64,000 nucleotides of DNA, from assembly GCA_964016885.1 (NCBI GenBank), contig OZ024755.1, positions 21,080,001 through 21,144,000 of the forward strand, written 5' to 3'. Positions 3,850 to 61,521 of the stretch are shown here, piece after piece. This stretch comes from Eledone cirrhosa. Its lineage: Eukaryota. The notes under the pieces were generated by a model that worked only from the letters and a program-made list of their open reading frames with translations, did not search any database and was not told where the DNA came from. The stretch's first letter is position 1, and every line of letters starts with the position of its first letter. The position numbers and the translations under genes are program-made.

Positions 3850-4992
3850 CTAGCAGAATGGCCCGGCGTTGTTCGGGATTCTAAACATAGATTGGCATGT
3901 TTATCCCTCCTTTCTGAAACAGTACAGAGAAATACGGAATACCTCGGCCTCGGGATGGTGTCTATATTTTGTGCTTTCATGAAATAAATTGTTTATATTT
4001 TGTTTTTGTGTATGCAAAAATATCTATACACGAATATATAATTATATATATATATATATATATTAAAATAACAGATCAAAGTTTGAGCAAAGAATCGCTG
4101 CTTTCACCTTTAACAGGATCTTCTGAAACTAAAAAAATCAATCTGTGAACGCAGAAGTAAATATTTCGAAAAACGTTGCAACCGAAGAAAAACAGGAAGA
4201 CGATACTTTGGTTCGTGAAGACGTTCCCTGGCAATGAACGGAAAATAGCGAAGATAATACGTCAGCAATGAGAACAATATATATATATATATATAATGTA
4301 GGAGGTGAGTTTTATTGTAGTACAATAAAGCAATGCAGATATCGGATAAGAAGCACTCTACAGTTTGTGGGACTGGAGTATGCATAATATAAGATCAAAA
4401 GATGGTTAAAGGAGTTCCATATATTTTATTATGCGCATTTCAAAAACAAACATATGTTGATTTAAAACTGCACTATCCACAAGTGTTTTTTAGCCTTCAT
4501 ATCATGTTCTCCTGTTTTATCTGATGAAAACACAAATATTATTGCTTGATGATGTTTGTTTTTGAAATGCGCATAATAAAATATATGGAACTCCTTTAAC
4601 CATCTTTTGATCTTATATTATATATATATATATATATATACATATACATATATATATATATATATATATATATATATATTTATATATACACGTGCTATAT
4701 ACACACACACACACACACACACACACACACACACACACACACACACACACACAGAGGTTTTCATAATGTCGTAATGTAGATAATACAGACAGATATTATA
4801 AGTGCGCGACGTTATAACTATGTATCTATCTAAAAAGACAGACTAAGAAAGAGAGAGAGATCGCTAACCGGCGCCTAATGCAGTCCCTAGGGTATTGAAA
4901 AAGTGTAAAGTTTGAAAAATAATCGGTTGGGTGGTTCTCGAGTTTTAGGGAGTCAGACAGACATTCTCTGTTTTATATATATATATATATAG
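3850..4992 (-). mobile_element. Non-autonomous Helitron (copy 1) with nested insert at ~4281-4755
   Basis: Minus-strand 3' end cccgaacaacgccggg hairpin + ccattctgCTAG followed by T. The 5' end ctatata..aaaacagagaatgtctgtctg matches 59820-60697, although the 5' TC is not cleanly preserved. Confidence 0.85.
4515..4581 (+). ncRNA. Type-I hammerhead ribozyme motif (Penelope/retrozyme-like)
   Basis: ttttat-CTGATGA-[aaacacaaatattat/atgatgtttgttttt stem II]-GAAA-tgcgca-TA-ataaaa. 6-bp stem I, ~15-bp stem II, palindromic stem III ATGCGCAT. Predicted cut after A4575. Confidence 0.8.
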
Positions 4993-5816
4993 TGGTAAGA
5001 AATTCTAAGGAGAGCTGGAAGTAGGTCTTCAGCAAAGAACCCCCCTCTCCTCCCCTACCCAGCCCTTAACTTCTACATGGTAAACAAAAGTTTAAAATAT
5101 AGACTATTTGTTTTTCTTTATTTTTTACATTGTTTATTTTTCACAAGCAGTTCAAAAACTAATCAACAGAGTTTTCATTGATTATCTTCAGTATTTATAT
5201 TAACTTCTGATAATATCTTCACTAATCTGGCATAATATTTACATAACTTTCACTCTCTCTGTTCTTGTGTGGTCAGAAAAGGGCTACCTGTCAATAGATG
5301 AATGATTTGAGGGAATTATTAAGTCTGCTCTTTTGTTTAACTAGATAACTATGATGAAATAAAATAGAATCGATTTATTTATCAATAAGCTTATTCGTTT
5401 ATAAATAGAAGGAAATTATGTGAAACCAATTAGGTTTATTCACTTACCATTGTATTATATTTTTTCTGTATTTGATGAACCAGCCATTGATGAAATTCAC
5501 TAACACGTGGTCCAGTGCTGCTGCTGTTGCTGAAGTCAAATTTAGACCTAAACTTTTATGCATTAGAAAATTATCAATTCATTGAACCAATGATCAATTG
5601 ATTAATCCAATCAGCCAAGCAGCCAACCAGCCAACCAGTGAAGCAGTTAAGTTGAATCAGAAGAGAAGGCAGTTTATATCTGTCTGTCTGTCCGTCCATC
5701 TATTCATTATGCAGCTAGTTATACACAGTTAATAAAGTTAATCATAATATTATCTTCTCTTTCTATGTCACTATCTATTTATCTCTTTCCCTTTCTCTTA
5801 CACACGCATGCATACT

Positions 5817-6258
5817 TGTGTGTGTATTTGTATGTATGAGTGGGTGTATTTGTGTGTGTGTATGTGTATAATATATATATATATGTGTGTGTGTGTGTAT
5901 TTGTATGTATGAGTGGGTGTATTTGTGTGTGTGTATGTGTATAATATATATATATATATATATATATGTGTGTGTGTGTATTTGTATGTATGAGTGGGTG
6001 TATTTGTGTGTGTGTATGTGTATAATATATATATATATATATGTGTGTGTGTGTATTTGTATGTATGAGTGGATGTATTTGTATGTGTATAATATATATA
6101 TATATATATGTGTGTGTGTATTTGTATGTATGAGTGGGTGTATTTGTTTGTGTGTATGTGTATAATATATATATATGTGTGTGTGTGTGTATTTGTATGT
6201 ATGAGTGGGTGTGTATGTGTATAATATATATATATATATATGTGTGTGTGTGTGTGTA
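5817..6258. repeat. Compound (TG)/(TA) repeat with ~70-bp higher-order unit
   Basis: tatttgtatgtatgagtgggtg recurs about 6 times. Confidence 0.9.
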
Positions 6259-6470
6259 TATTTATTTATTATTATTGTCATCAGTATCATTTAACCTTAC
6301 TCTTTCTGCTATCAAGGGTTGGTTTGCTCTCTCTCTCTACGTATATATAATAGTGAGAGAGAGTGTCTGTGGTTGGGATTTTACATATCTCTGTCTCTAT
6401 CTCTCTTTTGCTTCTCTACCTATATATATATATATATATATATATATATATATATATACATATATATGTA

Positions 6471-6651
6471 TAATTGCTTCTATTATTGGCACAAGGCCAG
6501 CAATTACCCAGTACATTACTGGTACTTTATTTTATCGACCCCGTAAGGATGAAAAGCAAAGTTAACCTCGGCGGGATTTGAACTCAGAATGGCAAGGGCC
6601 GTAACTCTATACGTCAAAGCATGGCGTCCAACCCTCTACCGATACTGCCAA
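6471..6651 (-). mobile_element. SINE family A (tRNA head; ~190 bp)
   Basis: Minus strand: A box tggcagtatcgg, B box gagttcaaatcc, centre cttttcatccttacggggtcgataaaataaagtaccag, tail gctggccttgtgcc..aattat. Confidence 0.9.
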
Positions 6652-59235: not shown

Positions 59236-59811
59236 GATTGGCAGTATCGGTAGAGGGTCGGACGCCATGCTTTCCAGCATAGTTACGTCCCTTTTCGATC
59301 TGAGTTCAAATCCCGCTGAGGTTGACTTTGCCTTTCATCCTTGCGGGGTCGATAAAATAAAGTACCAGTAATGTACTGGATAATTGCTGGCCTTGTGCCA
59401 AAGGTAGAAACAATTATTACTAATTGGCAGTATCGGTAGAGGGTCGGACGCCATGCTTTCCAGCATAGTTACGTCCCTTTACGATCTGAGTTCAAATCCC
59501 GCCGAGGTTGACTTTGCCTTTCATCCTTACGGGGGTCGATAAAATAAAGTACCAGTAATGCACTGGGTAATTGCTGGCCTTGTGCCTAAAGTAGAAACAA
59601 TTATTACTAATATATTACAGCTACAGTAATAGTTTCTACTTTTGGCACAAGGCCAGCAATTATCCCAGTGTATTACTGGTACTTTATTTTATAGACCTCG
59701 TAAGGATGAAAGGCAAAGTTAACTTCAGCGGGATTTGAACTCAGACCATAAAGGGCCGTAACTCTTTGCTGCAAAGCATGGCATCCAACCCTCAACCAAT
59801 ACTGCCAATCC
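59236..59811. mobile_element. Cluster of three SINE family A copies (59236-59415 +, 59422-59603 +, 59631-59811 -) in an AT-rich aacaattattattact repeat
   Basis: Family A sequence. The + copies are flanked by attattact duplications. Confidence 0.92.
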
Positions 59812-59819
59812 AACAGTTA

Positions 59820-60697
59820 TCTATATATCTAAAACAGAGAATGTCTGTCTGTCTGTTTCCCTAAAACTCGAGAACCACCCAACCGATTTTTTTCAAACTT
59901 TGCACATGTAATACTTATGGTCCTGTGAGTGTTTTGAACCAAAAATATTTCCAATTTTCAATGCGCTAGGCGCCAGTTAGCGATCTCTCTCTTTCTTTTT
60001 AGATAGATACATAGCTATAACATCGCGCCCTTATAATATCTGTCTGTATGTCTGCATTACAACATTATGAAAACGTCTTCACGAACCAAAGTATTGTCTT
60101 CCTATTTTCCTTCGGTTGCAACGTTTTTCGAAATATTTACTTCTGCGTTCACAGATTGATTTTTTAGTTTCAGAAGATCCGTTAAGAGTGAAAGCAGCGA
60201 TTCTTTGCTTAAACTTTAATCTGTTATTTTAATATATAATTATATATTCGTGTACAGATATTTTTGCATACACAAAAACAAAATATAAACAAACGTATGT
60301 ATTTCACGAAAGCACAGACAGCTTATTGTCATTGTTACTGCCGATATGCTACCCAAAAAGTCCCACAACTTTTAGCACAAGGCCAGCAATTACATAGTCA
60401 ATGGTTCGGAAATCACATGCATCACTGACGAGTTTACTCCTTACTCTACCAGTTAGTCTTAGTGTACTTTGTCCTGCTTTTAGGTCATGCCTCGAAAGAA
60501 GAGATACTCCATTGGCCGGAATACTGCGAAAGTGGCAAGAAAAAGAACAAGGCGGGCAAACGAATCGTCAGTGGAATCTGCTATTCGACGGTCGCAAGGC
60601 CGAGGTATTCCATACTTCTCTGTACTGTTTCGGAAAGGAGGGATAGACATGCCAATCTATGTTTAGAATCCTGAGCAACGCCGGCCCATTCTGCTAG
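59820..60697 (+). mobile_element. Non-autonomous Helitron (copy 3)
   Basis: A|TC start, 3' cctgagcaacgccggc hairpin + CTAG|T, no TSD. Removing it restores cagttatactaacaattatt, identical to the adjacent repeat unit at ~60719. Confidence 0.92.
60487..60666 (+). pseudogene. 59-codon ORF; N-terminus resembles Helitron RepHel start
   Basis: MPRKKRYSIGRNTAKVARKRTRRANESSVESAIRRSQ..., preceded by an acceptor-like ctgcttttag. Family assignment is from memory. Confidence 0.55.
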
Positions 60698-61036
60698 TAC
60701 TAACAATTATTATTACTACAGTTATACTAACAATTATTCCTATTAAATTAAACTAGAATTTGTAAACAATTCAAAAACATTTTGTTATTGTAGTTAAGCA
60801 AAACTATAACACAATTAACTAATTTAAATGAATATAGTCACATTTCCTGTGTTAGACCACAAAAACAAATTTACACTATATTAGGAAAGAATAACCCACC
60901 ACCACAAAAAAAAAAGATTTTTCGTAGGATGTTCATGGCAAGGACACCTTTGTGACCCTAGGTTTAGTCAATCAGGAATGACCTAGGGTTAAACAACAAC
61001 TGACAATCTTTTTTTTTTACCATCTAATTAATTTCA

Positions 61037-61521
61037 GTTTAATGGTTAGAGCATTGGCCTTGCAATCAAAAGGTTGTGAGTTCAATTCTCAGACCGGGTG
61101 ATGTGTTGTTTCCTTGAGCAAGACACTTTATTTCACATTGCTCCAGTTTACTCAGCTGTAAAAAAGAGATGATAGGGACTGGGGTCCATATCATTCCACT
61201 GCAGGAAGAGTGTCTTAACATTTCAGACGCTAGTCCCTCATCAGAAGAAAGAACAAGAAATTAGAAAGATAGAGGGGATGGATATATATATATATATACA
61301 GTTTAGTCAGCTGTAGAAATGAGATGATAGGGACTGGGGTCTATATCATCCCACTGCAAAGTGGTCGTGGAGGTGCCACGGCAAAAAAGCACCCAGCACT
61401 CACTGTAAATGAGGTTGGTGTTAGGAAGGGCATCCAGCTGTAGAAATCAAGCCAGAATCAGTTCCTGTCCCACCCTTGCAAGCATGGAAAAAGCGGACGT
61501 AAAATGAAATGATGATGATGA
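61037..61521 (+). mobile_element. SINE family B interrupted by a 95-bp insert between 60-bp direct duplications
   Basis: 61144-61203 is duplicated at 61299-61358. Confidence 0.88.
61213..61248 (-). ncRNA. Decayed minimal hammerhead motif
   Basis: Minus strand tctt-CTGATGA-gggactagcgtct-GAAA-tg-TT-aaga. Two C>T changes would restore gtccGAAAcgtt. Confidence 0.55.

Follow-up and report, generated by a model that had tools for sequence, protein, structure and literature searches.

Several hammerhead-like cores lie beside (TA)n tracts in the window (the whole 64,000-nt stretch of Eledone cirrhosa DNA analysed here), and the locus raises the question of what carries them. A first-pass annotation had described five cores in inserts of 100-350 bp abutting (TA)n, most with an inverted partner, and had read them as several families of Penelope-like element (PLE) ends or non-autonomous ribozyme retroposons, perhaps an undescribed non-coding set. 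We therefore examined the cores, the inserts and their copies elsewhere in the genome.

Hammerhead cores and inserts in the window

A hammerhead descriptor found 3 sites in the window, compared with a mean of 0.04 (maximum 1) in 100 local dinucleotide shuffles, and a second descriptor found 2 sites against a shuffle mean of 0.015, with 0 of 200 shuffles attaining 2. All five sites are real multi-copy repeats in the Eledone cirrhosa genome rather than single-copy sequence. They belong to five families, A to E, with the following features:

4277-4295: (TA)n target on the left side of the family A insertion
4298-4453, minus strand: family A inverted arm, reference positions 104-259
4449-4618, plus strand: family A direct arm, reference positions 1-178, with the short end, then (TA)n
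4513-4583, plus strand: type-I hammerhead of family A
19116-19213, minus strand: family C long arm, with G block, C block and a 48-nt tail to the long end at 19116
19213-19256, plus strand: family C short arm, with C block (CUGAUGA at 19236-19242) and the short end at 19256, then (TA)n
39775-39784, minus strand: family E inverted stub of the short end, reverse complement of 39818-39827
39783-39905, plus strand: family E arm, with the 3' half of a type-I hammerhead and a tail to the long end
39906-39917: (TA)6 common to the independent E and B insertions
39916-40084, minus strand: family B single arm, with the short end
61201-61281, minus strand: family D fragment, with a minimal type-I hammerhead at 61248-61213 and a predicted cut after 61217

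Our explanation, in which we place good confidence as a whole, is that the pieces at 4298-4618, 39775-39905, 39916-40084 and 61201-61281 are truncated 3' ends of protein-coding PLEs, and that 19116-19256 is a truncated copy of an ORF-free tandem unit of 470-640 nt. The latter comes from a large family of non-coding jumping repeats (family C) with a scrambled, predicted self-cutting hammerhead, whose RNA is predicted to fold as type SGC, a non-circularly permuted form.

The two cores that had been called intact, 4513-4583 (plus strand) and 39965-40055 (minus strand), are complete type-I hammerheads with palindromic stem III, and the 3' half placed at about 39784-39812 is a true one, at 39786-39812 on the plus strand. 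The core at 61213-61248 (minus strand), thought to be decayed, is a minimal type-I hammerhead with one change, CG to TG in loop III. The supposed 5' half at 19155-19190 is no such thing: its GAAA lies 27 nt upstream of CUGAUGA, making it part of a permuted hammerhead. The four type-I sites are ordinary; the new point, overlooked earlier, is that the permuted hammerhead of the sole non-coding family had been taken for half a core.

The arrangement of the inserts also differed from the earlier description. A real inverted partner was present at only two of the five sites (4298-4618 and 19116-19256), and the convergent pair reported at 39.9 kb consists of two different families with one (TA)6 in common. 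Three inserts abut (TA)n at both ends and the other two at one end only, and the piece at 61.2 kb measures 81 bp, outside the claimed size range, and is nested within another interspersed repeat. Among the copies tallied, TA adjoined 138 of 150 long ends and 107 of 143 short ends, against a background of 12%. Rfam searches, which had been proposed as a check, gave no hammerhead model for the window among the matches listed (150 of 296), and none for the family C unit or two short stretches.

Families A, B, D and E in coding Penelope-like elements

As had been reported, the window holds no PLE coding sequence that tblastn could match at E 0.05. Elsewhere in the genome, four of the five families join RT/GIY-YIG coding sequence; since copies of A, B, D and E lie behind such sequence, they are not non-coding families. 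The direct arm of family A is the 3' pLTR of a Penelope/Poseidon-like PLE, as judged from two ORF-bearing loci: in L081 a 733-aa RT plus GIY-YIG frame lies between two A copies, and L082 is a second case. This frame had Atlas neighbours at 0.95-0.98, with GIY-YIG/RVT_1 on a minority of members; Pfam recognised nothing in it, and its best E against PDB sequences was only 0.08-0.1. The family A hammerhead has an 8-bp stem I, CUGAUGA at 4521-4527, GAAA at 4564-4567, a palindromic loop III at 4568-4573 and a predicted cut after 4575, while the inverted arm, with the long end (tail) at 4298, holds only a hammerhead 3' half.

Family B has no inverted partner at 39916-40084; its complete type-I hammerhead (40055-39965) has a long stem II and a predicted cut after 39970, and GIY-YIG was found 1.5 kb upstream in 12 of 19 loci. 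In family E, GAAA at 39786-39789 is followed by a stem III that is a hairpin, not palindromic, with a predicted cut after 39808. Its 10-nt inverted stub recurs in three loci (L115, L133 and L136), and family E lies behind GIY-YIG in 2 of 7 loci, positions that derive from pattern matches and the alignment of L187-L195. The family D fragment has no inverted partner, and its 3' end is lost within the flanking interspersed repeat. A YIGQT motif lies upstream of D in 14 of 25 loci and the RT motif YIDD in 6 of 25; its match to Pfam GIY-YIG (E 2.3e-4) was just under the cut-off. Family D occurs in tandem in L238, has two ends and forms few fold-backs.

All four families display pLTR features, namely a partial tandem or inverted 5'-truncated copy and a tail at one end, and carry the type-I hammerhead in a pLTR by which EN+ PLEs are recognised. 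By motifs rather than a tree, we take A, B and E to be Poseidon-like and D to be Neptune-like. Type-I hammerheads, opposite-strand pairs, inverted 5' copies and one-sided tails in PLEs are already in print (PMC4209133, PMC8557442, PMC11167929). The four families share with Penelope/Poseidon and Neptune PLEs the order RT then GIY-YIG, a palindromic-loop-III hammerhead in the 3' pLTR, opposite-strand pairs and a tail between two RT start sites, although their tails measure 43-93 nt compared with 30-40 nt in published PLEs (PMC4209133, PMC11167929).

It is thus extremely unlikely that all five inserts are undescribed non-coding retroposons that cleave themselves with type-I hammerheads. The window without coding sequence and the genomic copies of every family, mostly pieces of 100-350 nt, would suit that idea, but A, B, D and E join coding sequence and the only non-coding family, C, has no type-I hammerhead. 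What stands of the first-pass annotation is the PLE type of the ends, with (TA)n targets and fold-backs, and at least one non-autonomous family.

Family C and its predicted permuted ribozyme

Family C consists of non-coding tandem units with one hammerhead each. In units of 623-631 nt the longest ATG frame was 39 aa. In 60 loci, sampled consecutively on a single contig, no arm adjoined coding sequence; GIY-YIG sequence upstream at three loci came from other PLEs, with a TA tract between, and at a fourth from a host element. Copies are 97-99% alike, head-to-tail tandems reach three units, and 24 of 60 loci have an arm longer than one unit. In the window, the G block of the long arm comprises GAAA (19211-19208), a stem III strand, a 3-nt bulge plus GA and an H4 strand, and the C block a stem I strand and CUGAUGA (19184-19178, minus strand). 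The S block, which holds the cut site, was lost through 5' truncation, so this copy cannot cleave.

Every core nucleotide is present, and the cut site comes first, then GAAA, then CUGAnGA. The SGC pattern had 15,033 exact matches and its reversed control 0; a structure-only SGC descriptor gave 170 distinct matches in 1.26 Mb of loci and 0 in 3.58 Mb of shuffles; and a search on the two core boxes plus H4 gave 305 matches against 2 in the control. Where only the two core boxes and H4 served for selection, 190 of the 195 motifs had U16.1, position 17 (A, C or U at the cut) was not G in 194, and stem I had 4-5 pairs in 187. When the boxes were left free, both were intact in 205 of 213 motifs. The fixed-spacing SGC pattern, which is too family-specific for a negative to count as absence, matched nothing in metagenome and viral contigs, a CSG descriptor matched nothing over the fetched loci, and the family C unit contained no type-I match. 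Type-II and type-III (circular) readings were rejected, as no stem closes between blocks in those orders.

In an alignment of 28 representatives, paired cells amounted to 94.8%, compared with 85.8% in shuffled alignments and at most 48% with slid partners, and 17 of 32 pairs changed on both sides, counts that are not independent events in related sequences picked by a core-fixing pattern. These changes fell in stem I (4/5), the stem III extension H4 (5/6), P0 (4/7), stem III (1/5), H3 (1/4) and H1 (1/4). Direct stem II is one pair, standard in 21 of 28 representatives; a direct multi-pair stem II was rejected except in one subfamily. Both of its sides find their partner instead in an upstream strand (H1 91% and H3 96% paired, with one compensatory pair each). 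Single-sequence folding recovered the nested helices only and was unremarkable (z -1.2 to -2.3).

In the predicted fold, the cut-site block would be followed by the GAAA block and then the CUGAUGA block, with stems I and III forming between blocks as pseudoknots. Stem II would be about one pair, both its sides being bridged by the upstream strand around a hairpin. A kink-turn has a 3-nt bulge and tandem G.A and A.G pairs between a canonical and a non-canonical helix. In family C, GA follows the bulge in 188 of 195 motifs, and the opposite side reads GA in 153 and UA in 34 of 195. Such a kink-turn-like loop in the stem III extension would bend stem III back, whereby one molecule could close the fold.

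The direct stem II is poor, unlike that of the published SGC motif, in which stem II closes directly between the G and C blocks and a further helix joins it to stem I, and the core may therefore be inactive or slow. Arm starts form only a weak peak at the predicted cut: 3 of 83 fall between -4 and 0, where a uniform spread would give about 0.7, and 1 of 83 falls within a stricter range (-3 to +6), indicating that most family C templates run through the site. Both observations would agree with a hammerhead-derived motif that does not cleave and is kept for PLE protein binding or packaging, as would the finding that ribozyme mutants left in vitro insertion of an anole PLE unaffected (PMC11167929). 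We give this alternative a small but real chance; the catalytic rules at U16.1, the cut position and the core boxes are kept across diverged subfamilies, which argues against it.

Spread of family C as DNA, by a minisatellite or rolling-circle DNA element with an incidental RNA fold, could account for the tandems of up to three units and for tandem neighbours that differ by only 0.7% (n=6). It is very unlikely, since the dispersed copies resemble coding PLEs in their (TA)n targets, in their inverted 5' copies and in having ragged 5' but two fixed 3' ends, and the covariation makes sense for one RNA strand only.

Insertion, a probable Naiad link and related hammerhead systems

A long end was paired with a short end in 137 of 140 fold-backs (92/94 targeted, 45/46 bystander), after 15 of 155 had been left out where an arm ran into the next unit or ended elsewhere. 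This pairing points to priming on both nicked strands. Arms differ by a mean of 1.6% (n=9) compared with 3.8% between loci (n=1128), junctions carry microhomology, and private changes are common to arms in the window, including one base change in both family C arms. One cDNA snapping back, or later inverted duplication with conversion, could produce this pattern as well, but we find it improbable: of 35 family A fold-backs, 17, including the one in the window, have a short arm that extends 25 nt or more past the 5' limit of the long arm, so that neither arm can derive entirely from the other, and some loci (L094, L052) join arms of different families. With priming on both strands, the near-strict one-long-one-short rule would turn the two RT start sites known in vitro into a testable model of inverted PLE insertion.

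Tandem read-through of family C would yield multimeric RNA, which the hammerhead would cut into monomers that likely circularise. A PLE RT-endonuclease would then nick both strands of a (TA)n tract and prime one cDNA on each, using for the one strand a fixed AU-rich site 64 nt behind the cut and for the other a fixed AU-rich site 112 nt behind it; microhomology would join the two cDNAs. This would yield fold-backs that combine a long end with a short one, and copies exceeding one unit. Family C was likely moved by a Penelope-like enzyme, and is likely a non-autonomous partner of Naiad-type PLEs. A Naiad-type ORF (N-terminal GIY-YIG, C-terminal RT) was absent from the unit and the 60 loci, and neither an autonomous partner nor a Naiad copy was found in the Eledone cirrhosa genome; cephalopod Naiads are described as long-dead remnants (PMC8557442), whereas family C copies are 97-99% alike, which counts against the partnership.

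Naiads share with family C a (TA)n preference, partial tandems, inverted 5' copies and a one-sided tail (PMC8557442), whereas family C has no ORF. No canonical hammerhead has been reported in them, only the words "core" and "half core" (PMC8557442), and this absence has served as an argument that PLE ribozymes are dispensable passengers. Reading the Naiad 3' ends in the supplement of that paper by eye, we found SGC or CSG hammerheads in 15 of 31 (9 SGC, 6 CSG), including 7 of 7 visible "half-core" cases, and none in the last 450-600 nt of the other 16. Two octopus Naiad consensus ends, also read by eye, have the same SGC plan, hairpin loop and bulge-plus-GA loop as family C, but their stems are wholly different, with no visible identity beyond the plan. 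The permuted block order thus seems to explain the "missing" Naiad hammerhead.

Taken jointly, these results make it probable that the Naiad clade has non-circularly permuted hammerheads as its ribozyme, of type SGC in molluscs, cnidarians, an ostracod, an acanthocephalan and a ctenophore and of type CSG in nematodes and a spider. On this reading, the present genome would hold a superfamily of about 15,000 non-autonomous retroelements with circular RNA, based on an active SGC hammerhead whose stem II is splinted and whose kink-turn binds protein. No such ribozymes would have been seen before in the chromosomes of cellular organisms, all earlier searches having overlooked them by using circularly permuted descriptors. 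If this is true, non-circularly permuted ribozymes are common in animal chromosomes, with PLE retrotransposition as their biological home, permuted hammerheads also come in a new architecture, and the statement that Naiads lack hammerheads is overturned. Our literature search, with subscription papers mostly outside it, found no report linking permuted hammerheads to PLEs or combining hammerhead, k-turn and Penelope.

Environmental sequence was the first source of the SGC block order (Eckert et al. 2023, PMC10085705). That study was the first to show non-circular RNA permutation, with 583 metatranscriptomic SGC and two metagenomic CSG motifs of no known host, none of the SGC hammerheads being in genomes of known organisms. 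Family C shares with those hammerheads (HRIMA-1 and variants) the S-G-C order, full core, cut-site rule, predicted stem I/III pseudoknots and a short U-rich stretch that links stem I with the side of stem II. It differs in being chromosomal rather than metatranscriptomic, at about 15,000 places within a retroelement, in bridging stem II by an upstream strand around a hairpin, and in a stem III that runs on through a kink-turn-like loop, a kink unmentioned in the text of that paper (PMC10085705).

Animal non-LTR retrozymes, like family C, are non-coding tandem units with one hammerhead each, and are proposed to spread as circular RNA with the aid of PLEs (Cervera and de la Pena 2020, PMC7229834; Li, Clavereau and Pollet 2026 preprint, 10.64898/2026.07.22.740005). 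They are defined by type-I hammerheads and found with type-I descriptors, whereas the predicted hammerhead of family C is SGC, its unit exceeds their usual 170-400 nt, and its (TA)n insertions show inverted 5' copies and PLE tails. As modelled here, family C behaves as a retrozyme would, but we do not class it among them, given its SGC order and lack of a type-I match; if so, retrozyme surveys based on type-I descriptors undercount such elements.

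Hammerhead sites in the window and their genomic copies

The first-pass annotation had described five hammerhead-bearing inserts lodged in (TA)n tracts as one system. The inserts, each assigned to a family, are as follows.

4298-4618: family A, type-I descriptor match at 4521 on the + strand
19116-19256: family C, truncated copy, cut-site block missing
39775-39905: family E, 3' half of a hammerhead at 39786
39916-40084: family B, type-I descriptor match at 40050 on the - strand
61201-61281: family D, type-I descriptor match at 61244 on the - strand

The three type-I matches compared with an average of 0.04 over 100 shuffled sequences, and a second type-I descriptor gave two matches in the window versus 0.015 in shuffles. 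Each of the five sites was used to search the 3.0-Gb animal assembly, whose repeats look octopus-like and in which the window spans 21080001-21144000 of contig C15, yielding 76, 3240, 1551, 1659 and 2342 candidates for families A, B, C, D and E; the best 40 per search were scored, and copy counts are lower bounds. The results showed that all five inserts are multi-copy. The half hammerhead at 39786 was also correctly read, its complete form being present at three fetched loci (L145, L146 and L155), and Penelope-like element (PLE) coding sequence was indeed absent from the window. Inverted partners, proposed for most inserts, were genuine in two, a 10-nt stub in one and absent from two, and the supposed convergent pair at 39.9 kb turned out to be two separate families within one (TA)6.

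Several other features were observed in the window. A (TA)28 tract (56469-56524) is flanked by an inward-facing inverted duplication of about 130 nt (56330-56650), which could represent both ends of a further element lying in a single tract; the descriptors used detected no hammerhead in it. Pieces of another interspersed repeat, found in at least 36 fetched loci, lie at 4000-4275, 4760-4960 and 59950-60290, and the family A insertion is nested within one copy. The family D fragment with its flank (61201-61522) is 97% identical to L088:1264-1585, about 305 kb distant, and the 3' end of the window copy is missing from a short word onwards that it shares with the flanking repeat. Large minisatellites occupy 13096-14864, 22366-24104, 25194-26132, 29418-31264, 49354-51138 and 51539-53091, with periods of 40, 48, 77, 41, 80 and 62.

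Families A, B, D and E and the formation of fold-backs

An insert-by-insert link check revealed that families A, B, D and E join PLE coding sequence elsewhere in the genome, which overturns their proposed status as an undescribed non-coding set; they are ordinary ends of coding PLEs. The RT and GIY-YIG reading frame between two family A copies was not recognized by Pfam; in its Atlas neighbours, at 0.95-0.98, a minority of the members bore GIY-YIG or RVT_1. A GIY-YIG stretch lay 1.5 kb upstream of family B in 12 of 19 loci and, in two of the seven family E loci that were extended, 1.2 kb upstream of that family (RT was also present in one), and family D was preceded by a YIGQT motif in 14/25 loci and by the RT motif YIDD in 6/25. 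In the 1.26 Mb of fetched loci, the type-I hammerheads fell into 22 classes with unrelated stems and mostly a palindromic loop III, indicating many further PLE families in this genome. At L238:200-2320, a 2.2-kb tandem family D unit has retained the N-terminal region together with GIY-YIG, whereas its RT core is missing, and it is an internally deleted PLE. Families A, B, D and E agree with the published PLE picture: minimal type-I hammerheads in PLE terminal repeats (pLTRs), for the most part as truncated singles and as pairs on opposite strands separated by 100-700 bp (PMC4209133); inverted 5' copies, a tail on one side and a bias towards (TA)n (PMC8557442); and an octopus genome with 31 PLE families of recent activity (PMC13282606).

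In each family there are two fixed 3' ends, a long and a short one, lying 43-93 nt apart and both on AT-rich words. One long and one short end were combined in 92/94 targeted and 45/46 bystander fold-backs (inverted pairs of arms), a tally of same-family cases with two classifiable ends beside which 15 further cases are unclassed. TA adjoined 138 of 150 long ends and 107 of 143 short ends, against a background of 12%. The strict long/short coupling is new here as a count, the one-sided tail being already known. In 17 of 35 family A fold-backs, the short arm ran past the 5' limit of the long arm by 25 nt or more, and snap-back of a single cDNA was therefore rejected as the origin of those 17. 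For the anole PLE protein, nicking and extension of both strands have been reported, with RT starting at two sites that delimit the tail, the stretch between the ends (PMC11167929). Fold-backs would arise by priming on both nicked target strands, with one start site per strand, and the two cDNAs may then be joined through microhomology.

In 30/35 family A fold-backs, one arm began no more than 8 nt from a single 10-nt palindrome (window 4449-4458; loci L002-L030), which is a fixed 5' stop, either the RNA 5' end or a strong RT stop; families B and E had similar hot spots of arm starts. Direct joins without a TA spacer connected C with A, C with D, E with a C relative, and B with another PLE (L077, L094, L128, L052, L164, L169), which suggests that RT jumps between RNAs of different families.

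The predicted permuted hammerhead of family C

The proposed five-insert system resolves into four ordinary PLE ends and one copy of family C, which is part of a large non-autonomous superfamily and carries a non-circularly permuted hammerhead of new architecture. Family C is non-coding: its copies consist of partial tandems and inversions built on a unit of 623-631 nt, in which the longest ATG frame reaches 39 aa, and one 27-28-nt word of the unit is present 1,318 times in the genome. In 60 loci taken in order from these occurrences, no arm was continuous with coding sequence (0/60); an arm longer than one unit was present in 24 and one longer than two in 3. In diverged relatives the unit measures about 470-640 nt and the ends are the same.

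When subfamilies were compared, the segment before CUGAUGA was seen to pair with one that lies 43 nt upstream and comes after a U-H dinucleotide, and the segment following an intervening GAAA with the one that precedes that U-H. These pairings are stems I and III and match the hammerhead register exactly; the block order is cut site, GAAA, CUGAUGA, the type SGC of Eckert et al. (PMC10085705). The SGC pattern matched 15,033 places in the genome (control 0), and a structure-only descriptor gave 170 distinct matches in the 1.26 Mb of fetched loci versus 0 in 3.58 Mb of shuffles. In an alignment of 28 representatives, 94.8% of cells were paired, compared with 85.8% in shuffles and no more than 48% with slid partners, and 17/32 pairs had changed on both sides; because these rows are related and were chosen by a pattern fixing the core, the support goes to the helices rather than to the core. 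To assess the core, 250 matches were selected on the two boxes, and 195 were scored after 55 without the upstream side were left out: U16.1 was kept in 190/195 and position 17 was not G in 194/195 (control, 2 vs 305). With the boxes left free, both were intact in 205/213. Stem II comprises about one pair (21/28), and both of its sides pair, around a hairpin, with an upstream strand. Stem III is extended via a 3-nt bulge with tandem GA (188/195 and 153/195), which would fit the kink-turn consensus. The predicted cut coincided with the start of 3/83 arms, a weak excess.

Naiads and comparison with known ribozymes

Craig et al. (PMC8557442) reported no canonical hammerhead in Naiads, a PLE clade, but core words only, with eight "half core" cases. 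In 31/54 Naiad consensus sequences from their File S5, named by file order, we inspected the final 450-600 nt by eye. The SGC order was seen in nine (Obim, Ovul, Esco, Amil, Plae, Bfor, 3_Chem, 2_Movir, 4_Dst), most of which share the upstream bridge and hairpin with wholly different stems; stem I is only 2 bp in Bfor, and one stem II side is weak in Esco. Six (Parc, 2_Nbra, 3_Nbra, Hcon, Hpol, Smim) had the order CUGAUGA, cut site, GAAA (CSG) with full stems I to III, and 16/31 had no hammerhead in this stretch. All 7 half-core entries read contained permuted hammerheads, the eighth, 3_Dst, being left out. CGi, Sglo, Tgra, 1_Skow, 1_Pfla, 1_Chem, 2_Chem, 1_Movir and 4_Chem, without visible hammerhead, appear on inspection by eye to have in common another conserved motif, of 70 nt and directly behind the ORF, which might be a further ribozyme or structured RNA.

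The two octopus Naiads and family C relatives have the hairpin loop and the bulge-plus-GA loop in common by eye, and we therefore regard family C as probably a non-autonomous element of the Naiad type. It may now be moved by an enzyme other than a Naiad one, since cephalopod Naiads are described as old remnants (PMC8557442) and joins of family C with A, D and E occur. We consider the permuted fold very likely, ranking it above both self-cleavage, which is predicted and likely, and the Naiad partnership, which is moderately favoured; the whole proposed mechanism is fairly likely.

We found no report linking permuted hammerheads to PLEs in a literature search covering few subscription journals, and the supplements of PMC10085705 may hold motifs obtained from animal-derived reads. 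Animal retrozymes are defined by type-I hammerheads (PMC7229834 and preprint 10.64898/2026.07.22.740005), and SGC hammerheads have been reported from metatranscriptomes, not from genomes of known organisms (PMC10085705). Compared with the SGC motif published there, family C differs in its stem II of about one pair with an upstream bridge and in its bulged stem III extension.
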